From Macrostomum lignano (lineage: Eukaryota): 64,000 bases of DNA. A program made the position numbers and the translations under genes. Positions 2,199 through 25,469 of the stretch are shown here, piece by piece (within the stretch, counting starts at the first letter, position 1; each line of letters begins with the position of its first letter). The DNA is taken from positions 62,001-126,000 of the forward strand of contig NIVC01000859.1 in the NCBI GenBank assembly GCA_002269645.1, in the 5' to 3' direction. The notes below the pieces were generated by a model, which worked only from the letters and a program-made list of their open reading frames with translations, had not been told where the DNA came from and searched no databases.

Positions 2199-3476
2199 CT
2201 ATTCACCTCGCTGCAGCACACACAACTTCGTCACGGGTCGCAGCACTGTTCCACCGCCAGTTCGCACCTTGGCCACGCGCACATGGCCGTCTCGTCCAGG
2301 AAATACCTCGAGAACTCGCCCGAGCGGCCAGTGTCCTCGAGGCGCATCCGCTCGTAGTGCCAAGACGATGTCGCCGACGGCGAGATCTGGCTGCTCCTTG
2401 ACCCGCTTGGATCTGGCGTTGAGTCTTGGCACCCACTCACGCAGCCATCGGTGCCAGAAGTGCCGCACCAACTCTTGGACACGTCGCCACCGCCGGCGCG
2501 GGTCGCGGCTGACCTCGGTCGAGACTTCCGTAGCAAAGTCACCACCCAGCTGTCCATGCAAGAAATGGTTTGGCGTCAACGGCGTGTCGTCCTTTGGGCT
2601 TGTGGTTTGGTATGTCAACGGCCTGGAATTGATGAGCGCTTCCGCACCTGTGAAGGCGGAATGCAGCTCTTCGTCGGTGATGTCAGCGTTGCTAAGGATG
2701 GCGCGCACAGCTCGCTTAGCGGCGCGAACCATAACTTTGTGGGCGCCGCCGAAATGGGGCGCCGACGGAGGCTGGAAGTGCCACTTGATGCCGCGCTCAG
2801 CTGCCGCTCTCTGGATTTTGTTCTGCTGCTCGTTTTCGAATTCTCGTAGTTCTCGCTCGCCTTTAACAAAATTGCCGCCGTTATCGGAGTAAACTTCGAG
2901 TGGCCGGCCTCTACGGTTGATCATGCGCGCGAAAGCATTCAGAAACGAGTCAGAATCCAAGCTGTACGCCATTTCCAGGTGCACAGCTCTCGTCTCCAAA
3001 CAGGTGAACAGGGCCAAATACCTCTTCGTTCGCCGTCTTCCGCGCCCTTGTACCGTTTCAAACGGACCACCGAAGTCGACTGCCACAAAGCTGAACGCTC
3101 GGAGCGAATTCTTCAGCCTGGCCTCTGGCAGCGGCGCCATCTGCTGCACCTCCGGTCCTGCTTTCTGCCTTCTGCATCGCGCGCACTCCTTCTCCCATTC
3201 TCGAATGGCTTCGCGCCCACCGATCACCCAAAACTTCGTCGACATCGCTGCCAGCGTCTGGTTTGTTCCGCCATGTCCTTGATCTTCGTGATAGTGCTTC
3301 ACCAACAACTTCGTGACCCAACTTCGCCTCGGCAGAATGACCGGATGCTTGGACTGATATGACAGATTCTGGTCGAACTTCAGTCTTCCGTCCACTCGCA
3401 GCAGTCCGTCTTCATCAAGAAATGGTTGGAGACAGCGAAGCTGACTGCTGGAGAAGACTGGCCTTCCCTTACGCAC
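2199..3476 (-). CDS. Bel/Pao integrase region (HHCC zinc finger, DDE core, C-terminal DUF5641-like); frameshifted from upstream pol
   Basis: HYHEDQGH...CARC; AVDFGGP, SDNGGNF, SRPLT, LTPNHFL, WPLGRVLEVFPGRDGHVR motifs typical of Bel/Pao. Confidence 0.93.
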   Translation of the reverse strand: MRKGRPVFSSSQLRCLQPFLDEDGLLRVDGRLKFDQNLSYQSKHPVILPRRSWVTKLLVKHYHEDQGHGGTNQTLAAMSTKFWVIGGREAIREWEKECARCRRQKAGPEVQQMAPLPEARLKNSLRAFSFVAVDFGGPFETVQGRGRRRTKRYLALFTCLETRAVHLEMAYSLDSDSFLNAFARMINRRGRPLEVYSDNGGNFVKGERELREFENEQQNKIQRAAAERGIKWHFQPPSAPHFGGAHKVMVRAAKRAVRAILSNADITDEELHSAFTGAEALINSRPLTYQTTSPKDDTPLTPNHFLHGQLGGDFATEVSTEVSRDPRRRWRRVQELVRHFWHRWLREWVPRLNARSKRVKEQPDLAVGDIVLALRADAPRGHWPLGRVLEVFPGRDGHVRVAKVRTGGGTVLRPVTKLCVLQRGE

Positions 3477-6400
3477 CTGCTGAACTTCTGCTTTGAAAGC
3501 TTCTTCTGAGCCACACGTAGGATTCGATCCTCAGTTTCTTGCAGCTCCTCGACCTCGAGATCACCAAGTCGCCTCTCATCTCGCGGAAGTCGGCAATTAC
3601 TGATGAAGCGCTGAACCCATGCTGTCACGCTACGCAGCCTGCGGTAGCTCGAAAATCGCTCTGGATTCAAACGCCAATCGTTGTCTGTGGTGTCGTTCGA
3701 CAACAGAGTTACGGCCGCCGATTTACTACTCTTGCTCGCCTCTCGCCGAACTTCTTGATCTCTGTCAACCGATGTCGGAACTAGCCTTGCCGGCCAGCCA
3801 TCCTCATCTAGCAGCAGAAACTCTGGTCCCGCGCTCCAGACCGCTGATTGGCAAAGGTCTTTGGCGCTACAGCCTCGCGATACGGCATCAGCGGGGTTCA
3901 GATCGGTCGGCACGTGACGCCACTGACAAGTCTTCACCGCCTCCTGAATGAACGCAACACGATTTGCTACGAACGGCTTGAAAATTCTACTGCGACCTCG
4001 AAGCCACCAGAGCACATTTGCACTGTCACTCCAGAACACCGACTCTCTCAGGTCTAAATCGAGCGCATCTGCCACCGTCTGGGCGAGTCGCACGCCAAGC
4101 ACCGCCGCCATGAGCTCGAGTCTGGGGATGCTGCATGCTGCCAATGGAGCTACACGTGCTTTTGCGGCTACAAGACGAACACAGATTTCGTCCAGGCTTG
4201 TGGCGCTCCTGAGATAGATTACCGCGCCGTAAGCCACCTGAGATGCATCCACAAAGACGTGTAGCACTGCCTTTTTGGTAGGATCAGGCCATAGACATCG
4301 TGGAATTTTCAGCATGCTCAACTCTTCAATCTCCGCTGCCCATTGCGTAGCCTTCGCGGCAACTTGCTGATCCAAGGGCTCATCCCAATCCGCTCCATTC
4401 TGCCAAATCTCTTGCAGAAGAATTCGCCCGCGAATTGTAAATGGACTCAGAAACCCGCATGGGTCGAACACCATCGCAACGCGCTTGAGCAGCTGTCGTT
4501 TCGACTCAACGGACACTTCCTTCGCACCTGCATTTCCCGTGATCGCGAGCATATCATCATTGGCTGTCCAAGTCACTCCCAACGCCTTCGACGTCGCCAT
4601 TTCTCCACGAAGCACGTGCTGCGCTTTCACCGCTCGATCCTCCGGAGCTACTGTCTCCAACACCTCAGACGCGTTCGACATCCATTTTCTCGCACACATG
4701 CCGGCTTTTTCCCACAGAGCTGTCAGTTCGCGGCGCAACTGGATAGCTTCATGGACGCTGTTCACTGAGTCCAAACTGTCGTCCATGTAGGTCGACTTCA
4801 GAATGGTTTCTGACGCTCTTGGAAAATGACTCCTAGCATGCTCCTGCGACACGAACTGAGCAAGAAACGGCGAACAATTAACTCCAAAAACGACACTCTG
4901 AAACTCGAATACCTCAGGTTTGCCCGTTTCGTTCCTGTCTCGCCACAAAAATCGAAAGTAGCGCCGATCTTCTGGCTTGAGGCGAATTCTGAGGTACATC
5001 TCTTCAATGTCGCAAACGATTGCCACTGGACCGCGACGGAATCGAAGGAGCACTTGAAATAGGTCGTTCTGAAGCTTCGGTCCTGGAAGGATGACGTCAT
5101 TGAGACTCACTCCTTGGCAGCGCGCGGAAGCGTCAAACACGATACGGACCTTGGTGGTGTCCTTGTCTTCTCTGATTACCGGCAAATGCGGCAGGTACCA
5201 TTCGGTGTTTTGAAGCTCACTGCTGTCTTCGACCTTCTTGAGATAACCTTTTTCCAACTGACCTTCCAACACCTCCTGATACGCTTTTGGCAATCCTTCA
5301 CTCCTCTGCAGTCGCTTCTCCGTGCTGATCAGTCTGCGTTCCGCAGCTTCACGATTGCTCGGCAGAGCACGATTTTGAGACTTCCATGGAATGGCTACCT
5401 GATATCTTCCTTCCACCATCGACATCGACGCCTTGACTACCGCCACAGCACGCTGCTCATCCGCAGTTAACGTCCCTCTTTCGCGGTTCAGCTCAGCTAC
5501 ATCAGGAACTTCCTCGATCGCCCACAACCTTCGAACCTGACTGTCGACCTGATCTTGACACTCGTGGCAGAGGAACGATTCCCCGCTCTTGCTGCTTCCC
5601 TCATTCGAACCTAACTGCCCGATGCAGGTCCATCCAATAGGAGTCAGTCGAGCTATTGGTTCCCCTGGCATTCCACAGACTTCTTTGCAAGCCAGATGCA
5701 TCTCGGCATTGTCGACACCGATAAGCATGTCAACCGTTTTCCGGCTTGATGTTGACTCAAACGGAATGCCTCTCAGATGCGCCCAGTGCTCCGCCAGTTG
5801 ACTCCAATCAACTGCCTTCATTCCGCCGGTTACTTTCTCCGCTGTGAAAGCAACAATTTTTGTCTCAAACGCTGCATCGACACTCCGGACTGTCACTTCT
5901 ACAGGCGCTGTTTCAAACGACTCGACTCCTCCGTTGAGCACCTTAACGTTTATGCGCTGAAGTTTACCTTCGAGTCCCAGCTCTGCTGCTACGTCCGCAT
6001 TGAGGTACGTGCGCGTACTCGCATCATCAAGCAACGCGTTGATCCGAACTTGGCGCTCACCAGCCACCAATATCACCGGCACCGTCCTCAACGCAGTTTC
6101 TTTTACGACTTCAGCCAGCATAGTGCGCTCCTTCTTCGTCGCCGCTGCTACGTCCTCCGTGGATTTTCGTGCCTCTCCTTCGCCGCTTCTCGTCGCTGCA
6201 GCTGCTGGTTTCGGCTCCCGCTTCTGGTGAAGCATTCGATGGTGTTTTCCCTGGCAACCATCTACGCCACAGGTTCTAGACCACCGACAAGCTAAACCAG
6301 AGTGATTGACGCCGAGACAATGAAAGCACAGCTTCTTCTCACGAGCAACGGCCCATCGCTTCACTACATCCATCTCCGCAAACTTCGGGCACTCCCAGGC

Positions 6401-7300
6401 GCCATGGCTTCCTTCACAGACACGGCAGTTTTTCTTGCGCTGCTCATCGGCTCTCGTTGACTCCGCGACAGCGCCAAAATGCGTTCGAGCTGTTTCCGTG
6501 CGCTGCATCCCGCTGAATTTCTTACTTTGCTCCATCTTCCCTGCTCCTGGCCCATTCTGTGCCGCAACTCCATGCACTGCCTCCATAGCAACCGTCTGAT
6601 ACTCAGCCTCCCGCAGCAGCCATTGATGAAGAGCGCTGAGCGTGTCATTTCTGCCATTCTCCCCGACCCATCGGTGGTATCGTGCCAGGGTGTCAGTCGG
6701 CAATTTCTTTTGCACGCGAAGATGAAGCAATCCATTGCTGTCTAGTTCAGCTTCACGACCCGCCTCCATCAGATTGATAACCGCTACATCCACCAGATCA
6801 GCCAGCTTCTTCAACTGAGGCGCGCTCTCCGTCACAATGGGCCGAAAACGGTCTAGATCCTCCAACACTAGCACCAGCCGGCGCCGCTCTCCTCCATATT
6901 CTCTCTCCAACCTATCCAGAGCCGCCTTGTACGCAAATTCAGAATGCCCTAGGTTGGCTATTAGCTTTAGCGCATCGCCCTGCAGACACTGCCTCAGTTG
7001 CAATAGCTTGTACACTCGAGAGGAGGGTGCAGCATCTACACACGCGTAAAAGGCCGCCTTCCACCCCTCGTATTGACGCTTATCACCTGAGAAACTGGGA
7101 ATCGCCACCCGCTGCAATTGCCGCCACATGTCCTGACTGACCTGCCTCTCCGCTTCTTCTCTCACCCTCTGTGTACACTCTTGCTGAACGATTGGCTCTC
7201 TAAGTTGCCACTGTACACTGGCTGACTGTGAGGTGGCTGGCCTGGGTGCAGGGTTTTGTTTTATCGATCGCTCGCCTGACCCCCTTCGTGGGCAGTCCAA
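3380..7300 (-). CDS. Bel/Pao Gag-Pol: DUF1759-like gag, CCHC knuckles, aspartic protease, reverse transcriptase, RNase H
   Basis: IPSFSGD; CRVCEGSHGAWEC and CFHCLGVNHSGLAC; ALLDDAS; WYLPHLPV, RIVFDAS, YMDD; HVFVDASQVAYGA, IPRLELMAA. Confidence 0.95.
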   Translation of the reverse strand: MDCPRRGSGERSIKQNPAPRPATSQSASVQWQLREPIVQQECTQRVREEAERQVSQDMWRQLQRVAIPSFSGDKRQYEGWKAAFYACVDAAPSSRVYKLLQLRQCLQGDALKLIANLGHSEFAYKAALDRLEREYGGERRRLVLVLEDLDRFRPIVTESAPQLKKLADLVDVAVINLMEAGREAELDSNGLLHLRVQKKLPTDTLARYHRWVGENGRNDTLSALHQWLLREAEYQTVAMEAVHGVAAQNGPGAGKMEQSKKFSGMQRTETARTHFGAVAESTRADEQRKKNCRVCEGSHGAWECPKFAEMDVVKRWAVAREKKLCFHCLGVNHSGLACRWSRTCGVDGCQGKHHRMLHQKREPKPAAAATRSGEGEARKSTEDVAAATKKERTMLAEVVKETALRTVPVILVAGERQVRINALLDDASTRTYLNADVAAELGLEGKLQRINVKVLNGGVESFETAPVEVTVRSVDAAFETKIVAFTAEKVTGGMKAVDWSQLAEHWAHLRGIPFESTSSRKTVDMLIGVDNAEMHLACKEVCGMPGEPIARLTPIGWTCIGQLGSNEGSSKSGESFLCHECQDQVDSQVRRLWAIEEVPDVAELNRERGTLTADEQRAVAVVKASMSMVEGRYQVAIPWKSQNRALPSNREAAERRLISTEKRLQRSEGLPKAYQEVLEGQLEKGYLKKVEDSSELQNTEWYLPHLPVIREDKDTTKVRIVFDASARCQGVSLNDVILPGPKLQNDLFQVLLRFRRGPVAIVCDIEEMYLRIRLKPEDRRYFRFLWRDRNETGKPEVFEFQSVVFGVNCSPFLAQFVSQEHARSHFPRASETILKSTYMDDSLDSVNSVHEAIQLRRELTALWEKAGMCARKWMSNASEVLETVAPEDRAVKAQHVLRGEMATSKALGVTWTANDDMLAITGNAGAKEVSVESKRQLLKRVAMVFDPCGFLSPFTIRGRILLQEIWQNGADWDEPLDQQVAAKATQWAAEIEELSMLKIPRCLWPDPTKKAVLHVFVDASQVAYGAVIYLRSATSLDEICVRLVAAKARVAPLAACSIPRLELMAAVLGVRLAQTVADALDLDLRESVFWSDSANVLWWLRGRSRIFKPFVANRVAFIQEAVKTCQWRHVPTDLNPADAVSRGCSAKDLCQSAVWSAGPEFLLLDEDGWPARLVPTSVDRDQEVRREASKSSKSAAVTLLSNDTTDNDWRLNPERFSSYRRLRSVTAWVQRFISNCRLPRDERRLGDLEVEELQETEDRILRVAQKKLSKQKFSRCVREGQSSPAVSFAVSNHFLMKTDCCEWTED

Positions 7301-7977
7301 TCAGCTTTTTCACTCCTGTCTGGCGCAGCGCTTACACCCACCTCAGCCCCAATCGACTGTTCAGCCAAACCTGAACCTGGGCTAGCCCTTTCACACGGGC
7401 TCTCTGCCTTAGTGCTGCCAGTAACAATTTTCAATCGCCTCAGCTCCTCTGCCAACTGCTCATGCCGTTGTTGATAGTCTTTCTCTAGCTCTCTCTGCAC
7501 CTCTTCCAACTCCAGCGCTCTGTGCTCTGCGGCTTGCACTTTTCGCTGCTCTTCCTCACGCCTCTGCTGTTCTTCAGACTCCGCCAAGCGATCCTGTTCC
7601 TCCCTCTCAGCTGCTTCACTTCTGCTACGATCTTTCCAGAACTCGGTCATCAGACCCACAGTCTCACCGTAGTCCTTTTCAGCATTCTCTAGCTCCTTGA
7701 TCGTTTGGCGACGCAGTGGCAGGTCGTTTCCGGCGAGCTCCAGCAGCTTCTCCAGCTCTGTTGTCACAGCCTCGAACAGCTTCTCCATGAGAGTCGCTTG
7801 CTGTTGTACTTCGGCGCCGTCTTGACCACCAGCAGCGAGTTGTTGCACCAGCCGGTTTCTTCCTTTGGTGAATGCGGCCTTGGCCCTCGTCTTGGCGGCC
7901 TTCGCGTCCATCAGCTTGCGTTCTTCCTCGTCAGCCGGCGGGTAGTTCGACTCGAATTCTTCTCCGTCCTTTTGCAT
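7261..7977 (-). CDS. Bel/Pao Gag N-terminal coiled-coil segment (frameshifted from rest of gag-pol)
   Basis: ATG lies just after the PBS. The ORF is E/Q/K-rich and helical and overlaps the next ORF, which suggests a single indel. Confidence 0.8.
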   Translation of the reverse strand: MQKDGEEFESNYPPADEEERKLMDAKAAKTRAKAAFTKGRNRLVQQLAAGGQDGAEVQQQATLMEKLFEAVTTELEKLLELAGNDLPLRRQTIKELENAEKDYGETVGLMTEFWKDRSRSEAAEREEQDRLAESEEQQRREEEQRKVQAAEHRALELEEVQRELEKDYQQRHEQLAEELRRLKIVTGSTKAESPCERASPGSGLAEQSIGAEVGVSAAPDRSEKADWTAHEGGQASDR

Positions 7978-7982
7978 TTTTG

Positions 7983-8000
7983 AACCACGCTCTGCTACCA
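7983..8000 (-). promoter_or_regulatory. Primer binding site, initiator tRNA-Met type
   Basis: TGGTAGCAGAGCGTGGTT, 2 nt after the 5' LTR. It resembles the complement of the animal tRNAiMet 3' end (AACCATCCTCTGCTACCA). Confidence 0.85.
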
Positions 8001-8002
8001 GT

Positions 8003-8288
8003 TGTTAAATCGACTAACTCTTCGAAACCGAAAAATAACTAAGTAGGCAAAAATCGGATGCTTGTAGGCTTCAATACCTCTGCGTTCTCGCGCAGGCAAA
8101 ACAAAACAACCAAGTTAGCAAAAAAACACGCTGACCAAAAATCACGCCCTTTTTAATTATTATTTAACGTGGGGTGGGGTTAGCAAATCGAGGGGGGTTG
8201 GCTCATGTACATTAAATAAAGAGCAAATACATGTACAATTAAATAAGTAAAACCCCAAAAATATGACAAAAAATGAACCTCCAGAACA
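8003..8288 (-). repeat. Bel/Pao 5' LTR
   Basis: Direct repeat of 1311-1595. Confidence 0.97.
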
Positions 8289-8945: not shown

Positions 8946-9323
8946 CTCGAATAACACTAACGAAGATCAGCTTTCTCAGCCAAAAGTCAAGTTTGCAAAA
9001 CTGGTCACAGACCAAGAGCAGAAACGTTAACAAAGTTTTAGCAAAAACCAAGTTGTATATTTTTCTGTTAAATTCAGGCCCTTTATAAAGCAAAAAGGAG
9101 GGGGTAATTGTTACGTTTAAACAAATTATTTGTAAAATATTTACAAAGCTAATTTAAATAAAAATTCTGCGCATTGAAACAAGAAATTCTGTGATTGGTA
9201 GAGAATTATTTCGCCAATCATATTACAAGAAGTAGTATAGTATGCCCCTATTACATAATATAAGATATTGTGTACTTCTAGTGCTTCTAGTGTAACTTTT
9301 GGCAATTGAATTCTTTCAAACTG

Positions 9324-9516
9324 TATTGGGTGCGGCCATAGACGACTAAGTCGCACACACACCCAGCCATGAGCTAAAGAAACGATGCTTCAAGCTTGGA
9401 AATAAAAAAATAGAAGTTACGATACATGAAATAAGGCGCTCTGTTCAGGGTGCAAACATTTCGGTGACCTTGTTGATCTTGACTCACTGTCTTCCGCTAG
9501 AGAAGAAGTCATAACA
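9324..9516 (+). repeat. Gypsy 5' LTR (terminal TG mutated to TA)
   Basis: About 12 differences from the 3' LTR by manual alignment. Confidence 0.93.
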
Positions 9517-9517
9517 G

Positions 9518-9535
9518 TGGCGTCGCAAGCAGGAT
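9518..9535 (+). promoter_or_regulatory. Primer binding site (TGGCGTCGCAAGCAGGAT, tRNA-Ser-like)
   Basis: Starts with TGG 1 nt after the LTR and overlaps a probable former gag ATG at 9534. The tRNA identity is from memory. Confidence 0.75.
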
Positions 9536-9537
9536 GG

Positions 9538-10630
9538 CTAGATGGGCCACTGGGTCGGCCCCGCCCGCTTGTCCCTGGCCGGCGAGGCGCCCCCGCCAGC
9601 GCCCAGCCGCTGCACTGCGTCTATTTGCTGACTTTAGGCGGCTTGGTCTATGGGCCTGGCACCGGCCGCGCGGCAGAATTCGGCATACACCTCATAGGAG
9701 ACAGCCTGAACGCTCGCTGAATTGTCGAGCCACTGTTGGAGCGCCGCGCTGGTCCGGGCCATGCTAGTTTTGAAGCTTACTAGCAGGTGCCTCCAGTCGT
9801 AGCTATAATCGGCAAAGCTGTTGCACAGCCACGTGGCGCCATTGCGCACGATCGTAGAGACACCAAAGCTGTGCAACGGGGCGCAGCACCTCGAAGAAGG
9901 TCGAGAGGTGGCCCATGCTGTTGTTGGTGCACTCGAGGTCTAGCACCAACTGGGCTTCGCCGGTCAGGTAGTAGCTGCCCACGTGGTAGCGGGCCCGAGA
10001 CTTATTAGCGTGCTGGATGCCGTTGATCGGGCCAGGCAAGCCCGCAGCGTCGTCGCGCTGGCCCAGCGCACTCTCATCTAGGATTGCTCGCTCTAGATCC
10101 AGGACCTGCATGCAGGCGGCGAGCACATCGGTGGGGATCGCAAAAGCTAGTTTGTGCTTTTGCACAGCACGGGCCATACCGGCCGCTAGGACCAGGCGAT
10201 GGGTGCCAGATGGGCAGTCGGTCATTCTCAGGACTACGTCCTGCGCCAGGTTCGTCTGGGGCAAGGCAGGGCTGTACTCCGCGGGCTCTAGTATGCCTTG
10301 GAGGCCCATAGCGCGGAGCAGCCGCTTGGTGCTGGCCCAATGACCGATCGTATGCACCACCTTGGTATAGGTCTCAAGGCAGGCCTCATCAAAGCCGGGC
10401 CACGTCTAGAGCACCTTGAGGACGTAGCCCTGGAGGGTCCTGCCGCCGGTGTGGTGATTGGTCGCCCACCGCATCACTTTGCTAGCAAGCACAAGGTTTG
10501 CGGCAATGCGCAGCCGGCCCTGGTCCTCATCAATGAGGTGCCTGGTCTCGGCTACATGGGCCGGCTCGAGCTGGGTTGGGGCAGCCTCCACCAGAACGTC
10601 TCCATCTTCCAGTCTTACCCACCCGAGGGC
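9538..10630 (-). pseudogene. Endogenous viral element: Jingchuvirales/chuvirus-like nucleoprotein, 5'-truncated, with premature stops (10406-10408, 9634-9636) and one frameshift (~9880)
   Basis: Stitched translation has KVMRWATNHHTGGRTLQGYVLKV, HTIGHWASTKRLL, DVVLRMTDCPSGTHRL, RYHVGSYYLTG, GHLSTFF, STI..SFADYSYDW. This is the ordered motif series I recall for chuvirus N (KxNWWxxNHHTG, HxxGHWAST, PxGTHR, YHxGAxYLTG, GRLGTF). Confidence 0.82.
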
Positions 10631-10899
10631 AACGCCCGAAGAATCTTTCCGAGTTAGAATCCTTCCTTGGACTTGTGATGCACTTTTATATACTTTATTT
10701 AACTAGTTGGCGACCAGCCCCCCACTCTCCTACCCTCGCACATGACTCAGCGTACATAGCCTGATCGCAACTCTAGCTCATATTTAATGTACATTGCTCA
10801 ATGCTCAATATCGGCAACAGTCAAATATTCTAAATAAATATAATCGCATCGACCGTCTAGGGGCTCTAAGCTTTTTCTCTTCGGCCAGTTCTGCCAAAG

Positions 10900-12319
10900 C
10901 ATACTTGAACTCTTACAGGACTGATTACGTTCTTCTCGCGATTCATTCCAAACCTTTCTGGAATATCGGCTCCGTTGGTACACCTGAAGCGCAAAGTTGT
11001 GGAGTTTCGTTGGGGCGCAAAAGAACAAAATGCGTTCAGAAATCTTCAGAAATCACTTTCAGAAGACGCTGCTTTGCATGCGTACGACCCAAAGCTACCG
11101 GTTGAGCTCGAAGTAGACGCTTCGCAAATTGCCCTTGGTGGTGTCCCGAGTCAACAAGGACGCCCTGTCTTGTACATCAGCAAACTTTTGTCATCATCGG
11201 AGCGAAATTATTCACAAATAAAGCGAGAAGCGCTTGCGATAATTTGGGGTGTTAGAAGATGTCATCGTTTTCTCTGTGGCAGAAAATTTAAGCTAATAAC
11301 CGACCATCGCCCTCTCGTGTACATCTTAGCTTGTGACATAGAGCTACCATCGAGAGTGTCCGCAAGGCTGCAGTGATGGGCGATATTTCTCACGGCGTAC
11401 GATTACGAGATCGAGCATCGTAAATCTAAAGCTATGGCATCTGACGCGCTCTCAAGATTGGTTCCGCAAGGAAGAAGCGGTGAAACACTCGAGATTGGTA
11501 ACATTCACACCGTTTCAACTTCACTGTCTCTGGAAGATAGAGGCTGTGAGTCCTTGGGATAGAGTCCATATCGAATTTGCAGGACCGGTCGACAACCGTT
11601 ACATGCTCGTTCTGGTAGTGGTAGATTCTTACAGCGGATATCCTGAAGTCCATGTTACTAAAGATATGACTTTTCGAACTGTCATTCAGTGTCTCAGGAG
11701 GACATTTTCTCAGCTTGGAATTCCAAGGACACTTGTGTCAGATAACGGACCATGCTTTATCAGCAAGGACTTTACGGAGTGGTTGGCAGGAATTGACTGT
11801 GAGCACCTAACTATCGCAGCTTATCAGCCACAAAGTAATGGGGTTGCAGAGCATTTCGTACGCACGCTAAAAAAAAGCATCAAGGCAAATGGCTTCAGTC
11901 AAGAGTCTGTTGACCGCTTCTTTCTGTTTTATCGGACATCAGACAATAAATCGGGATCTTCACCAGCGGAGCAGCTACTGGGGCACAAGCTCAGGGTTCC
12001 GTTTACTAAGAGGCCAGTCGGACTAGAGGATCCAGTTATCTACAAAAACGAGAGAGACAGGCCCATCACTGCAAAACTGCTCTTGCCTATCGGAAGGAGC
12101 ATGGCCATGATCAAGACAGATGAACCGAACTCGAATTATCGGAAAGTTCACCTGGATCAGCTACATCCGTACAGTCCAACCGGCGAGGAGCCCGCAGAAA
12201 CCGACAGAATGCCACCCGGAGCTGGCGAACACGTGGAAGGGAGAAAAAGAGGAGCCTCCACAACAAGAGGGGCTGCGTACATCTCCAATCCCTGCGGTTC
12301 CCGAGGATACTATGATTAA
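10900..12319 (+). pseudogene. Gypsy pol remnant: RT thumb, RNase H and integrase core; HHCC region deleted
   Basis: GLITFFSRFIPNL, VDASQIALGGV, SERNYSQIKREALAI, TDHRPL, DALSRL, PWDRVHIEFAGP, VSDNGP, PQSNGVAE. Stop at ~11374 plus frameshifts. Confidence 0.92.
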
Positions 12320-12432
12320 ACTCAGGAGAAGCATCCGACTTTCGGAGAAACCCAAAGTTAACTATAAGTGCTAAAATTTGTTTCTCCCGCATTAACTTAA
12401 AAAATTGTTCTTTGCCATTGTAAGGGGGGAGA

Positions 12433-12625
12433 TGTTGGGTGCGGCCATAAACGACTCAGTCGCACACACACCCAGCCATGAGCTAAATAAGCGATGCTTT
12501 AAGCTTGGAAATAAAAAAATAAAAGTTCGATAACATGAAATAAGAAGCTCTGTTCAGAGTGCAAACATTTCGGTGACCTTGTTGATCTTGACTCACTGTC
12601 TTCCGCTAGAGAAGAAGTCATAACA
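12433..12625 (+). repeat. Gypsy 3' LTR
   Basis: TG...CA termini, preceded by PPT AAGGGGGGAGA. Confidence 0.93.
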
Positions 12626-12849
12626 AACTGCAACATACTTCATCCACGAAAACGAGAGCTTAATTTAGAATATGCCATAGACAGTAGCGTTTGCGCTAAA
12701 TGTTTCATCCCAGTTAGCAAAACTTTTCGTTCTCAGTCCAATTCATTTAACAACTTTAGTTGATAGAAAAACTAATAGTGTCAGCATTAGAAGATTAACT
12801 ATCTATGTTAGTCTAGGGGACGAAATTTTTGTAGTTTGGGCAAAATCAA

Positions 12850-19302: not shown

Positions 19303-20907
19303 TCAGTCAGAGTGTACTTGACGCTCCGGATCCAGCTGCCAAGTAATGAAAAGGACGCCTCTGCCTTTGATCTGCACCAACTTGAACTCTGTCTCACCAT
19401 CAGCGGTCAAAGTGTATCGGGGTTTCTTAGACAATGGTAATCTTACCAAAAACGATATGCTACGGAACAGATTGAAGTCAGCCGAGGTTGGCTGGCTTCC
19501 CGTAATCGTGAAAACCCTGTCAATATTGTCTTCAATCTTAAAGAAACTTATCCATATGTCATCTTTCAAAGACCTGCAGCAAACAAGCTTTTCTGTGATA
19601 GTACAGATGGTGAACACATCGCAGCGGTCAGACAATATTAACATTCGATCTCGAACTGCCATGCGAGTGTCTTTCTTAATAAGCTCGCAATCATGAGGCA
19701 CTGGAAAAGTCATTTGAATCTGATTAGAATCTTTGTTGAGCCCCAAAATTGTTAGATCATCACTATGCTCTTTAATCAGGGTGAACAACTTGTCACAGTT
19801 TCCAGCGATGCAGTACAGCTTCTTAGTACTTTCGTGCAACTCGGTGATGCAGATTCTTGACTTGTGAGCTCCGCTGAGGTCGGTCACTGTCACCGCTTGC
19901 TCCTGAGCGATGAACAGCAGCTGTCGCTCATTGTCGCAGTGGAGATCTCGGATTGGCTGATCGGCCTCCCAGCTGCAGGCCAGGCGACCCACAATATCTG
20001 CATCAGGAGACAGGAGCAGAATTTTGGATTCAGGAAAGTTTTTGACGCCTCTAGTATCGGCTTCGCTATCCGAGCTCTCCGAGGCAACCTGAACCTCAAC
20101 AGCTACAAAAATGCTTGGCTGAGGCAGTCGGCTGGGATCTGTAGAATGCTCGGCAGACTTCTTAACGATATCCGAGTCATGTATGACGAACCCAGAGGTG
20201 TTGTTGCACACGGTAAGACACGTGGCTATCTCGTTTTCTTGAAGCTTTGCTTCTTTTCTGCTTTCATTTGCTTTCAGCTGAATTTTATCGCATCGGACAG
20301 AGTCAGAAACATCGATCAGTTCAACATACTTTTTTAACATTGTCAGCTCGGATTTTACGGCATTTTGCAGCTCCCTTACTGACGAGTTCAAATCTGGATA
20401 AGCGACAAGCTCGACTTTCCCTTCATCCTCATCCATTTTCACCAGCTTCGAGTCCAACTGAAGCGTTCTTAGCGATGCCTCCAAGCTCCTGTTGACGAGG
20501 AAGACCTGCCTCATATTGTTGTTATTCTTTGCTTGCTTTAACTCTCTCTCAGAGTCTTCCAGCTCCGAGACACTTGATAGAGAGACCATTAGCTCGTCAT
20601 GCTGTTTAGTAACAACAGCACAGAGCTCACTTTGGCACTGGTCCAATGTCTCTCTGAGTTCGGCGAATGAGTCATCAAGAAGCTGCAGGTCAGACGCGAG
20701 TCTCTGCTGCATCAGTCTCATTGGCGCTCGATATGCCTTGAAGTGATGTATCCTCTCAGCGACTGAGGCTTCCAACGCGTCTAATTCAGCAAAGTCGTTT
20801 TGCAGGTGCGAGACGCAGAGAGGCTGGCAGGTGATTGGAGAATCGCTTGTAGCAGCACTGCGGCAGAGTCGCACGGAACAGCGACAAGGTGACTCCATAG
20901 CTTGCAA
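19303..20907 (-). CDS. Intronless 534-aa protein: CX4CX15CX2H putative Zn motif, long coiled coil, putative beta-propeller-like C-terminus
   Basis: Long open ORF. It shares blocks with 22688-24337 (VRLCR..A...SPI..QPLC..HLQ.D, RLMQQRLASD, DQPIRDLHCD...LLFIAQ). Confidence 0.8.
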   Translation of the reverse strand: MQAMESPCRCSVRLCRSAATSDSPITCQPLCVSHLQNDFAELDALEASVAERIHHFKAYRAPMRLMQQRLASDLQLLDDSFAELRETLDQCQSELCAVVTKQHDELMVSLSSVSELEDSERELKQAKNNNNMRQVFLVNRSLEASLRTLQLDSKLVKMDEDEGKVELVAYPDLNSSVRELQNAVKSELTMLKKYVELIDVSDSVRCDKIQLKANESRKEAKLQENEIATCLTVCNNTSGFVIHDSDIVKKSAEHSTDPSRLPQPSIFVAVEVQVASESSDSEADTRGVKNFPESKILLLSPDADIVGRLACSWEADQPIRDLHCDNERQLLFIAQEQAVTVTDLSGAHKSRICITELHESTKKLYCIAGNCDKLFTLIKEHSDDLTILGLNKDSNQIQMTFPVPHDCELIKKDTRMAVRDRMLILSDRCDVFTICTITEKLVCCRSLKDDIWISFFKIEDNIDRVFTITGSQPTSADFNLFRSISFLVRLPLSKKPRYTLTADGETEFKLVQIKGRGVLFITWQLDPERQVHSD

Positions 20908-22687
20908 TTGGTTTTAATTTCGAGGCAGTTACAGGTAGCTCGTCTTCATTTCTGTAAGGAGTTTATTAAGTCTAAGACTCGTACGGTCATTTTAAAGTGT
21001 ACTGCGCTGTACGTTCACAATGCGAATTAAAGCTGATGAAGGCTTCATTTGTGCTTTTTACGAGCGCTCGTAGTAGTAGGGTTCTAATTTCCTGCACTAG
21101 AGGGCCAAAATTGCAGGCTATTCATGCACAACTTAATTGTACTTAGAGAATGCTCTGTAGGATAGAAAAGCTGAAATATCAGGCCAAACCTTACAAATAC
21201 TGCTGTAGAGGCTGCGTCAGAACATTTTGTGGGCCGTTTTGATGCAGTTGGTGTAGATATGATGCTAGAGATGCAAATTGATAACTGAAAAGCATAAGAA
21301 TAGCGGATCATAGCTGGGTTGCAGACAGTCTAAGTAGTATGCTAGTAGAAGGACGTTTTTTTATTGTTCTAACTAAATATGAACAATTAATGGCTAAAAG
21401 TGAAATTTTATTGACTTTTCTGTCCAGAAGACACAAACCAAATTTATTTTGACTGATCAAACTTACTGACACTTGGTTTTTACCAGGGCAAAAAAACAAA
21501 AGCACCAAAAAATTACAACTCATCGTTTTTCTCATTTGTTCTTTGTAATAAATTAAACCTCGTATGCTTTGATCCTTCAATTAAAACAATACACTCGGAA
21601 AAGCATCGCAATGCCGCCGATAGTCTAGCAATGAAAGTGATAGCGATAGATAATAATAGGCGATGGTTTGTCCTGATAGAAACGATTCGTTGTCTTTAGT
21701 GATCACCATAATCCCCCTCTTAAAGCAGCCTTCTTAGACACAGCCTCCACCTGTAGCAACACACTTCTCCCGTCGCGTGAAACGCATCAAAACAGCATGT
21801 CTGGGAAGACAATAGAGGAGACTGCGCCGGAATTTCTCTCCCAAATGATCTCTGCTTGCACCAACTCACTTCCTCAAACGATCAAGGAAGTTACGCAAGC
21901 AGAAGATCCAGTATGAGTGAATTAACTCACAACAGTGGTTCAGAAACCACTGGGCTTGAAAATCAACGCTTTTTAAATTCGCTGACACATTTACAAAATT
22001 TTGTGACGAATACAGATTAACAATGCCAGGTTAAAACGCGAAGGGGTTGAAAGTTAACGATATTTGCTTAATTGCTTAAGATCATATGAGCTCCGCACAA
22101 CGCCCGCTTGGAAGAAACCCGATTCAAATTGTATTTTATATGAACGCAACCCTTACTTTGTAAAACAAATATCAGTCAAGTTACTACGCTACTTACAAAC
22201 TTCAGCAACGCAAGATGTTAAATTACTCGTACATATTTTAATAGATGGCGCAAGCAATTACAGAAATCGAATAAGTGGCTAACCCCAAAATAGGATAACG
22301 ACAGAAGTGACATCGTCACAATTTAAATAACAACAAAGTTGTTCCATTTCAACCGTGATAAAGATGGAAACATGGAAAAATGACAGATCCTGTCTGCGAA
22401 TAGTACAGATGAAAATTATCTAATGGAAAATCGAACGTCTAATCAATCGAATATGATAGCATAAATATTGGTTAAAGGCCACAAAGATAACAGACATAAC
22501 AGAGCTCTGATGAAAAGCACATGATAGGATAAAAAACTTTTTTACGGTTAAAAAGCTAAAGAAGTCATACTTTAAAAACTACAACAAATTTAACTCAAAT
22601 TTCCTTTATTGTTCATTGCGCAGTCTAAAGTCTACTAAAAATCGATATCAAGTCGGTATGATTGTGCTACACCAAAACAGTCGGAGT

Positions 22688-24337
22688 TCAGAATTCAAAA
22701 ACGCGCTGCCTCAAGGAATTGTTAGCCACATCGAAGGCCACGCAGCGCTTGCCGTCGGTGCTAAACTCAATCACCGAGTCGTCGGTGAACGGAACTTTGA
22801 TTGCAGCACCGAAGTAGGGCGTTCCGAAGCCGCTGCTCACCTGCTGAGCAACGAGAGCGGCCATGTTTCGGTTGCCTCGCAGCAGTTCAGCATTCAAGTC
22901 GAACTTTCCTTTGTCCTGCACACTGTTCGAGGCCAGCAGCATCCCAGTGATGGAGCACACTGTGTGCAGCTTCTCACCGTCATCAATGAACAGCATGCGG
23001 TCCCTCACCGAAATCCGAGGCCTGGCGCCCGCCTTGTCGATGCCGGTCACCGCGAGCTTCAGCTGGACTTCGTTCGACTTCTTGGACAGTCCGAAAATCA
23101 CCGGCTTGCCATCAGCTCGCTCGGCGAGGATGAACAGCTTGTCAGAGTCTCCGGCGATGCAGCGCAGCTTCTGCACGTCATCTTGCAGGTCAGAGATACC
23201 GACTCGAGACTGCTCCACTCCGCACATGTCGGCGATGATCAGCTGTCGATCTTGAGCGATGAACAGCAGTTGCAGTTTTGTGTCGCAGTGCAGATCTCTG
23301 ATGGGCTGATCCCAGCTGCCGGGTACCTTGCCGACCTCCTCGGAGTCGAATGAAACCAAAACGACATTTTTCTCGCTGGCAGAACGATCCACGGCGACAA
23401 GAATGGATTTGGGAGGCAGCTGACGTGTTTCAGACACTTGGGTCACTTCTGCAGTTGCTGTCTGAGATACCTCGATGACTTCAGTAGCTGTCTGAGATGC
23501 TTCGATGACTTTAGTAGTTGGCTGATGTATTTGAGTGTCTTCAGAAGCTGGTTGAGGCACTCGCTTTTTACGCGACTTACGATGTCCACTCGCTGTTTTA
23601 GCTTTAACGATGCTACCAGATCCGTCAAGAGCAAAGCCCTCAGTGCTATTCCACACTGTCAAGCAAGACGGGGTTCCGATGAGTTGGACATTGTTTTGTT
23701 TTGGAACTACATCAGTACTTGGACCACCCTGGCTTTTGCAAGCGCGAATATCAAGGCTTTTAACCAATTTCTGAGCAAGCTGAAGCGACATCTCGAAGCT
23801 CATCTGCAGGTTTTTAACCATCGAGTTCACATCCGGGAAGGCAGCCATCGTGATCTCGGTTTTTCCTTCATTCATGCACACAAGCTCTGAGTTAAGCTCA
23901 AGTGACTCAAGCGACTTGTCCATATTCTCCGTGATGAGAAAGGCCTGTCTCAGGTCGCTCTCGTTCTTCGCCGTCCTGAACTCCGTCTCAAGATCGTCAA
24001 CCACGGCTAGAGTCGCAAGAGACTCCGAAACCTTTTCGTAGTGCTCGCTGACGGCTTCAGTGAGCTCCGCCTGGCACTTTTCGAATGAGTCGCGCAGATC
24101 TTGAAAGGTGTCACAGAGAAGCTCCATGTCGGACGCCAGCCTCTGCTGCATGAGACGCAGCGGGCGCTGGTAATTGCGGAAGTGAGCGATTCTATCCGCG
24201 ACAGCGGCCTCCGCATTCTCGCACCTGCGCAGGTCGGCCTGCAGATGGTGCTCACAGAGCGGCTGGTCCGAGATCGGAGACTTTCTGGCCGACGGATTTC
24301 TGCACAGTCTCACGAAGCAAGTCGCTTTGGTGTCCAT
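22688..24337 (-). CDS. Intronless 549-aa paralogue of 19303-20907
   Basis: Long open ORF with the same conserved blocks plus a low-complexity T/E/Q linker. Confidence 0.82.
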   Translation of the reverse strand: MDTKATCFVRLCRNPSARKSPISDQPLCEHHLQADLRRCENAEAAVADRIAHFRNYQRPLRLMQQRLASDMELLCDTFQDLRDSFEKCQAELTEAVSEHYEKVSESLATLAVVDDLETEFRTAKNESDLRQAFLITENMDKSLESLELNSELVCMNEGKTEITMAAFPDVNSMVKNLQMSFEMSLQLAQKLVKSLDIRACKSQGGPSTDVVPKQNNVQLIGTPSCLTVWNSTEGFALDGSGSIVKAKTASGHRKSRKKRVPQPASEDTQIHQPTTKVIEASQTATEVIEVSQTATAEVTQVSETRQLPPKSILVAVDRSASEKNVVLVSFDSEEVGKVPGSWDQPIRDLHCDTKLQLLFIAQDRQLIIADMCGVEQSRVGISDLQDDVQKLRCIAGDSDKLFILAERADGKPVIFGLSKKSNEVQLKLAVTGIDKAGARPRISVRDRMLFIDDGEKLHTVCSITGMLLASNSVQDKGKFDLNAELLRGNRNMAALVAQQVSSGFGTPYFGAAIKVPFTDDSVIEFSTDGKRCVAFDVANNSLRQRVFEF

Positions 24338-25469
24338 TCTTGTGTCCGAAATTCAGTGAGTGATTAAGCTTTGGAGTGACTAAGAAATGAAAGCCTGTAA
24401 GCGTCACGAAAATGTGATGCTGCTAATACAATAGAACTAGGAGGCAGTATGTGGGCTGTATTTACTGCAATCCCGGAATGTTTATAGCCATGAACTTCAT
24501 TACACGTACAGTCCGAGACAACGTGTACGTAGGCAATGTGCAAAGTTTTTAGCCTGCACATGTACGGCATGCGAAGTTCCGCTTTTTCTAAAGCCGATGT
24601 AGCTGCATCTGCATTTCATGTACAGGCCAAGATTACGTGCAAGCGCGAAATGTGCAAAGTTTTATCCTGTACGGCATGCGAAGTTCCGCTTTTTCGAAGC
24701 TGATTTAGGCACTTGCTGGTCTAGTGACGGGGAAATGCCTGGCCAACTGAGCAACGTGTTTTGTAAAGTACTGCGTCTGTGACCTTCTACGAGTACGTGG
24801 GGAGCAGCCTAAGTACTGTGGGTTAGCGATCGCGTCGTGGAAGGGTCGCTCCAGGCTTGAATTGGGTCTCTGCGCTGTGCTTTCTCTCTCACTGCTGTCT
24901 CGCGGGGGGGGGGGGGTGAGCGTTCGAGCCTCCTCATCTCAACCCGTTGGGTGTTTTTCTATGCCGCCGCGCGGGGCTGCTGCCCGGTCTCTCCCTTGCA
25001 CGCTAATTTTTTCTCCATGCGCCCTTATTCTATCCTATCTTTTTCAATCACCGTTTTTATACTGATTTACACTCGTATTTGAGTGCGCGGCGGACATGGG
25101 CTTGTCTAAATGGCAACTGTGTTGACATATTGACACTCCACACCTGACTCCGCGATTCTCTGCGGCACCAATGGAACACCAATCCTGTAGATTGATTTTG
25201 TCTGGTGGACTGTCCACTCCATTTTAACGCCGGGCAGCACTTGTCTGAATTTAACTGCTCTGCGTCTTGAATTTAATGCGCAGCCACAGACGGTGTTTTG
25301 ACCATAGACAAAAGTAGAAACATTGTTGAATATGATTGGCAGTGTCTTAAAAATGAGTGTTCAAATTTCTAAAATTCTATAGTGTATGTACTACTGTTAG
25401 TATAACACTTACCTAACTTTTACTTCTAATCCAATCTGTACTTCTCGCTTCTAAGCTCTTATTATCCAA

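Follow-up and report, generated by a model that had tools for sequence, protein, structure and literature searches.

A decaying Gypsy element of Macrostomum lignano carries an antisense qinvirus-like gene fragment in place of gag, protease and the reverse transcriptase core

Results

Structure of the element

The element at positions 9324-12625 of the 64,000-nt stretch of Macrostomum lignano DNA analysed here (the window; all coordinates are positions in it) is probably a single-locus, decaying Gypsy retrotransposon in which gag, protease and reverse transcriptase (RT) were replaced by an antisense qinvirus-like fragment, likely through one capture by RT, and which has likely never been remobilised. 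The following features were assigned:

9319..9323, plus strand: left copy of the target site duplication (TSD) AACTG, single at 5/5 empty paralogous sites examined
9324..9516, plus strand: 5' LTR of Gypsy family 1, 193 bp, TA...CA; K2P 0.054 against the 3' LTR
9518..9535, plus strand: primer binding site (PBS) for tRNA-Ser(AGA), with 14 parent-like nt (9518-9531) and 4 nt of extra match; overlaps the 5' junction
9532..10635, minus strand: fragment of a qinvirus-like small-segment (putative nucleocapsid) gene, antisense to the element
10636..10673, plus strand: RT remnant, 3' of the catalytic core; the 3' junction of the insert is 10635/10636
10674..10917, plus strand: nested solo LTR of another tRNA-Ser-primed family, 244 bp, TG...CA, a later insertion
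10669-10673 and 10918-10922: GGACT duplication around the nested solo LTR
10918..11537, plus strand: RT connection / RNase H remnant, 94-96% identical to parent copies
11540..12319, plus strand: integrase core remnant, preceded by a 352-bp deletion at 11537/11540
12420..12432, plus strand: polypurine tract (PPT)
12433..12625, plus strand: 3' LTR, 193 bp, TG...CA
12626..12630, plus strand: right copy of the TSD AACTG

The preliminary description of this DNA had listed two LTRs, a PBS, a PPT and a 5-bp AACTG duplication, all of which were verified, the duplication also by empty sites; the main parts of its anatomy hold, and what it overlooked are the nested 244-bp solo LTR and the 352-bp deletion. 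The LTR pair differs by 10 substitutions and 2 gap columns, and the 5' LTR begins with TA instead of TG. The 244-bp insertion was assigned as a solo LTR in the same orientation because its relatives precede a tRNA-Ser PBS (3 of the 4 close copies read). Domain search recovered RNase H followed by integrase in the window element and gave no match there to the integrase zinc finger, though this was found in the parent. An ASC gene that lies between paired copies of the solo-LTR family belongs to a 5.16-kb tandem duplication and is not an enclosed gene.

Integration at a single locus

The flanks of the element are members of a small repeat family. At the paralogous copies examined (C749 twice, C184, C29 and C1413) these flanks adjoin and hold AACTG once, which shows that the element is flanked by a genuine duplication. 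A twin at G000:C620 shares 99.3% identity across 4.5 kb, flanks included, and so represents a second assembly of this one insertion. A contig from public run X5 spans positions 9502-10665, reaching 30 nt past each junction of the insert (1 nt below the 31-nt rule), and a second X5 contig joins the left flank to the 5' LTR; the chimera is therefore not a mis-join. Chromosomal embedding is supported by the presence of the insertion on two genomic contigs, that of the window and that of the twin, together with the empty paralogous sites, and the earlier suggestion that the chimera integrated as a single unit is supported by the matched TSD with its empty sites.

The parent Gypsy family

The genome was searched with the LTR and the best 40 of 70 candidates were scored, a depth at which diverged copies may be missed. 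All 7 full-length 4.4-kb parent copies carry 5-bp TSDs with LTR-pair K2P of 0-0.027, and the intact copies include identical LTR pairs. An unbroken gag-pol frame of 1,313-1,314 aa is present in 3 of the 8 parent loci translated, so that an autonomous parent with matching LTRs, the existence of which had been left to be checked, does exist. In parent L059 the domains run protease-RT-RNase H-integrase, which is the Ty3/Gypsy order.

Compared with the parent, the window copy has gained 1,104 bp and lacks a 2,116-bp segment bounded by the PBS end and RT residue ~695. The lost segment held gag, protease and the RT core (YMDD at 623), in line with the earlier account of a ~1.1-kb insert that starts within a few nt of the PBS and replaces gag, protease and most of RT. 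The same account took the ATG at 9534 for the former gag start; this assignment fails because the parent gag ATG, 34 nt past the PBS, falls in the lost segment, and the C620 twin has no ATG at the matching position.

Identity of the viral insert

Pfam searches of the insert frames and of 25 homologs returned no meaningful family, PDB sequence searches with the insert gave nothing significant, and scans of IMG/VR and JGI contigs contained no relative of it. Word-indexed protein searches gave no match at E ≤ 1 with the insert and one unnamed match with the profile described below. For the 200-aa frame the best ESM Atlas value was an uninformative 0.87, and an AlphaFold model computed from 3 sequences reached a pLDDT of 32.

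A profile of three endogenous copies (X at stops) was then searched against 1.84 billion proteins, and 232 homologs were obtained at E ≤ 1e-3 (best 1.6e-22). We looked up 30 of the 150 listed homolog clusters, namely the 20 best long matches and 10 others picked mainly for a length close to published qinvirus proteins. Contigs of 1.3-2.3 kb carry 27 of these 30, which matches the size of qinvirus segment 2. Qinviridae are negative-strand viruses, and their segment 2 is mostly 1.6-1.9 kb long with one protein that is assumed to be the nucleocapsid and is termed hypothetical or putative nucleocapsid in the literature (PMC10496375). NCBI names were found on 3 of the 30 clusters, only one of them viral: Hubei qinvirus-like virus 1, and hypothetical proteins of an ant (Formica) and of Trichuris. 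The match to the Hubei protein (YP_009337848) has 28% identity over 290 columns (pairwise E 4e-24, profile E 7e-13).

The viral origin claimed earlier is thus borne out by the 232 homologs and the named match. The proposed chuvirus N is not supported: the named relative is a qinvirus, and, by cluster names, 0 of the 30 looked up belong to a chuvirus. By these matches the insert is qinvirus-like, encoding a small-segment (putative nucleocapsid) protein, and probably not chuvirus-like. Homologs of the insert protein occur also in Formica and Trichuris records.

A profile of 126 homologs matches the window at positions 92-323 and 339-399 of 446, and the gene start (~first 90 profile positions) is absent. 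The conserved frame lies on the minus strand, antisense to the LTR promoter direction as had been described, and stops (near 10407 and 9635) and frameshifts (near 9878 and near 9630) interrupt it. In this frame, the C620 twin and the related copy at C500 differ by 0.22/0.12/0.53 at the three codon positions with dN/dS of 0.06; the fragments therefore represent a conserved protein, the copies of which diverged under selection before insertion. In a tree of 47 rows, some partly filled, made by a quick method, the four endogenous copies cluster (SH-aLRT 83) beside one environmental fragment (94) and apart from the Hubei virus. The 12 stretches fetched around L-like endogenous viral elements (EVEs) of the genome held no fragments of this gene.

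Related captures elsewhere in the genome

Related viral pieces were found at three further loci: C500, C2101 and a locus present in four assembled versions (C247, C1377, C3130 and C4099). The four endogenous copies differ pairwise by 26-40% in protein. The C500 copy lies in sense within an element of a different, DnaJ-bearing Gypsy family, with a truncated 5' LTR on one side, the element's 3' end on the other and a 4-bp ATAT duplication (TSDs of this family are 4 bp in 3/3 copies checked). At C2101 the fragment is antisense and abuts a piece of integrase that has 57% identity to that of family 1, and at C1377 it sits within a THAP/P-like DNA transposon, replacing ~45 bp. Weak matches at C671, C636 and C2215 were left out; C671 and C636, which were tested, scored nothing with a homolog-only profile. 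From these loci, capture of this viral clade is recurrent, with four separate insertions of varying orientation.

Two of the Gypsy fusions are antisense and one is sense. The idea that the antisense arrangement is a design is not supported, given the sense orientation of the C500 sister capture. Some selection for antisense copies may nevertheless have acted, given two antisense fusions among three against a same-polarity bias in Aedes cells, where the nearest LTR has the same polarity as the EVE in 543 of 614 cases and other virus groups dominate (10.1101/127498).

Junctions and the tRNA match

The PBS pattern had 17 genomic matches, and 3 of the 5 fetched were called tRNA-Ser(AGA). The match to the tRNA is 14 nt long in 9/9 parent loci, 18 nt in the window, and 17 nt in the C620 twin and in run X5, where it then ends; the 18th nt differs between window and twin. 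Three to four extra tRNA-matching bases would arise by chance in ~1 in 64 to 1 in 256 cases. Plus-strand synthesis stops after 18 nt, at tRNA position 58 (PMC12657518). The alignment to the C500 viral paralog continues into the PBS, and the virus was therefore probably similar in sequence to the PBS end at this point. Both junctions substitute parent sequence rather than adding to it. An own TSD or a homopolymer tail on the viral piece had been named as the mark of a later insertion into a resident element; neither is present at the insert ends, and the longest A or T run is 4.

The PBS-end junction, the extra tRNA match and the lack of an own duplication or tail argue for RT template switching as the origin, as the preliminary description had proposed, and the capture likely happened during reverse transcription. 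Plus-strand transfer and a minus-strand switch would both place the junction within reverse transcription and are inseparable here, because the extra bases number only 3-4, two of them are common to the viral paralog, and the 18th varies.

Mobility and transcription

The genome search with the insert yielded 19 matches. Sixteen of them cover no more than the 38-bp RT piece; the other three are the present locus, the twin and C500. No second insertion site of the chimera with different flanks was found in this search, which scored best candidates only, so that diverged copies may escape. The chimera's LTRs have K2P values of 0.054/0.049, compared with 0-0.027 in the 7/7 full-length parents. Where a LARD/TRIM carrier has several insertions of the same insert, one locus and a twin with the same flanks were found here, although the autonomous partner is present; the search with the LTR turned up intact parents, that with the insert no further site among its best candidates, and the mobile cassette envisaged earlier is not supported. 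Mobilisation in trans is unlikely because the LTRs are older than all seven dated parents, the leader is lost and an LTR is nested within the element. With 5% LTR divergence, the nested solo LTR, the integrase deletion and the broken viral frame, the element appears to be single-locus and decaying.

Coverage of the insert in runs X1, X2 and X5 is uninformative on transcription because intergenic control DNA is covered too (29, 27 and 30 of 30 bins), as it would be in DNA libraries. In run X13, coverage falls mostly on two genes (15 of 30 bins) and words of the insert are almost absent, although this does not demonstrate that the locus is silent. No joints across the element were listed in 4 runs.

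Discussion

Proposed mechanism and alternatives

The following course would account for the chimera. Gypsy RNA would have been co-packaged with the small, negative-sense genome segment of a qinvirus, and minus-strand synthesis would have copied the PPT, integrase and RNase H before RT switched to the viral genome strand just past the RT core and copied 1.1 kb. The template was likely genomic RNA rather than mRNA, because the element strand is the viral genome strand. Two routes may have led back to the element at the PBS end: plus-strand strong-stop DNA, with up to 18 nt copied from the tRNA, annealed to viral cDNA of similar sequence, or RT returned to the element template by way of this short homology. 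Integration of the hybrid by the parental integrase, with a 5-bp duplication, would have followed. Divergence of the LTRs, the nested insertion, the integrase deletion, stops and frameshifts are observed to have followed. RNA started in the 5' LTR would pair with viral mRNA, as a by-product of the strand copied.

The same origin is compatible with a present function: an antisense transcript from the 5' LTR, which may end in the solo LTR that immediately follows the insert, would supply piRNAs that target the cognate qinvirus, and the element would have been kept for that reason. We consider this unlikely. The antisense geometry, the same-orientation solo LTR directly downstream of the insert, the presence of the element in both assembled copies of the locus and the capture of this viral clade four times, twice antisense to a Gypsy, are in its favour; against it, the LTRs are 5% diverged, the TG end of the 5' LTR is lost and the C500 sister capture is in sense. 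The four copies also differ by 26-40% in protein, and piRNA targeting tolerates little divergence. Piwi is kept in free-living flatworms (PMC8191739) and EVE piRNAs restrict virus in Aedes (PMC6797480, PMC8048955), but in the Aedes work these piRNAs come mostly from host piRNA clusters (PMC8048955), and LTR orientation need not set the strand. A wider version, which we hold to be doubtful, is that Gypsy elements have repeatedly served this lineage of worms as an archive for the nucleocapsid gene of a single qinvirus clade. This copy would then be an antiviral unit complete in itself and located outside piRNA clusters, with an RNA complementary to viral mRNA that starts in its own LTR, ends in the solo LTR and is made into PIWI guides, and the 18-nt tRNA copy would document, in the germline, a jump of plus-strand strong-stop DNA onto viral cDNA.

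Repair at the DNA level, with free viral cDNA patched into a resident Gypsy at a break and 2.1 kb deleted, is very unlikely. Such insertions do occur in this genome, as the C1377 fragment in a P-like transposon with ~45 bp lost indicates, and viral insertions that lack LTRs and are accompanied by small deletions have been reported from Aedes (PMC8048955). From random repair one would not, however, expect a junction that coincides exactly with the PBS end and extends the complementarity to the tRNA, and two other copies are likewise fused to Gypsy 3' halves. That intact parents copy the chimera in trans and so spread an antisense viral cassette is the reading we find hardest to credit. LTRs, PBS and PPT are present, as are intact parents with identical LTR pairs, but the genome search found no second site, the element is older than all 7 full-length parents dated, and the nested LTR would likely shorten the transcript. 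Also lost is the parent leader that follows the PBS, the usual site of packaging signals. Capture during reverse transcription followed by decay at one locus remains the reading we prefer.

Relation to known systems

The kind of structure is less novel than first assumed, since an RNA-virus gene in a two-LTR element has been published for a nematode (PMC5177903). There, eBxnv-1 of Bursaphelenchus xylophilus is a nodavirus RdRp in a degenerate Bel/Pao element, at a single locus and weakly expressed. As here, an RNA-virus gene lies between two LTRs with a PBS, a PPT and pol remnants, gag is absent, the locus is single, and copy-choice capture was proposed. The present case differs in that the element is a Gypsy and the gene a negative-strand, qinvirus-like small-segment gene that is antisense and broken, described here at the DNA level; here, moreover, intact parents survive and both junctions can be mapped.

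LCMV-IAP recombinants in mouse cells (Geuking 2009, as summarised in PMC3205384) and Sindbis/CFAV-LTR hybrid vDNA in Aedes cells (PMC6797480) likewise reflect recombination of LTR-element RT with non-retroviral RNA to give hybrid DNA. Those hybrids are experimental or somatic, whereas this is a germline fossil with a TSD; recombination in PMC6797480 is described as not homology-driven, while one junction here overlaps likely short PBS homology. Defective HIV-1 proviruses (PMC12657518) have junctions at the same place, the PBS end, after aberrant plus-strand transfer, with tRNA-derived bases. They show read-through of 7-54 nt past position 58, against ≤4 nt beyond the parent PBS and a normal stop here, and the acceptor in our case is foreign viral cDNA.

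Aedes EVEs give antiviral piRNAs (10.1101/127498, PMC8048955). Mosquito non-retroviral EVEs (nrEVEs) resemble this element in that viral fragments lie in or beside LTR elements and nucleoprotein-derived EVEs are common, but they are mostly in piRNA clusters with small RNAs shown, and the chuvirus EVEs there are glycoprotein genes in Bel/Pao elements. Qinviridae have been endogenised elsewhere too, as an RdRp fragment in an ant (PMC6540820) and a table entry for the bristletail Machilis (PMC6955108), with no LTR capsule described in the available text of these reports. No LTR-enclosed qinvirus gene and no flatworm qinvirus were found in the openly available main literature searched, and the main text of a flatworm virome study (PMC9241645) contains no qinvirus. 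New here are the virus group and the clean junction, the kind being known from nematode eBxnv-1 and mosquito nrEVEs.

Significance

If small RNAs from this locus are found, EVE-based antiviral memory would extend beyond arthropods; otherwise the element is a fossil. In either case both junctions, the primer tRNA, intact parents and the empty site are available in one genome, which makes it an unusually clean natural record of LTR capture. Hosts of qinviruses are mostly uncertain (PMC10496375, PMC11108086), and the four separate insertions tie a qinvirus clade to the germline of Macrostomum lignano.

Further insertions of the viral clade

Three further insertions of the qinvirus-like clade lie on other contigs of the same genome (G000; L coordinates are local to each fetched stretch):

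L050:5001-7712 (G000:C500:133000-135712), second LTR-virus chimera, viral gene in sense
L183:8447-9434 (G000:C2101), antisense, qinvirus-like N-terminal fragment abutting a Gypsy integrase piece
L135:2711-3755 (G000:C1377; also C247, C3130 and C4099), qinvirus-like C-terminal fragment within a THAP/P-like DNA transposon

The C500 chimera carries a related gene within a Gypsy family that differs from family 1; its 5' junction is inside the LTR, and its TSD is 4 bp. The far side of the C2101 fragment is truncated by a piece that we take to be mariner-like. Judging from a reading of the exons, the C1377 fragment and its host transposon apparently lie in an intron of a putative DEAD-box helicase gene.

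Parent leader and neighbouring elements

Past its 14-nt PBS, the leader of the family 1 parent copy L059 (compared with window 9532-9545) is similar, with small gaps, to the complement of the tRNA T-loop, and this stretch may perhaps be a second tRNA pairing site. Outside the main element, the window shows these features:

2199-8004, minus strand, near-intact Bel/Pao-like gag-pol, directly upstream
from about 13100, LINE-like element, downstream
19303-20913 and 22688-24352, minus strand, two related intronless ORFs (~540 aa), both covered by the RNA-like run X13

The Bel/Pao-like and LINE-like labels come from frame reading; the domain search gave only a weak endonuclease match.

Other viral fragments, a DnaJ-bearing Gypsy family and annotated homologs

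Two other kinds of feature were recorded elsewhere in the genome:

L160:2616-3998 (G000:C498; also C497, C1166, C1292, C4304, C56 and C838), endogenous L fragments from negative-strand RNA viruses, with PF00946 matched at E 1e-45 in the best case
L125:7160-8116 (G000:C343), DnaJ-domain ORF (E 6e-18) of a Gypsy family

Top PDB matches of the L fragments were L proteins of 1,711-1,756 aa; on C498, a Gypsy RNase H piece lies ~3.5 kb upstream. The DnaJ-bearing family is multi-copy (9-kb element, 900-bp LTRs), and its additional ORF, 3' of pol, is kept in several copies.

Full-length homologs of the qinvirus protein are annotated on long contigs in two Trichuris species (protein clusters P0065/P0155) and in Formica fusca (P0037), and these are possibly endogenous or domesticated copies.
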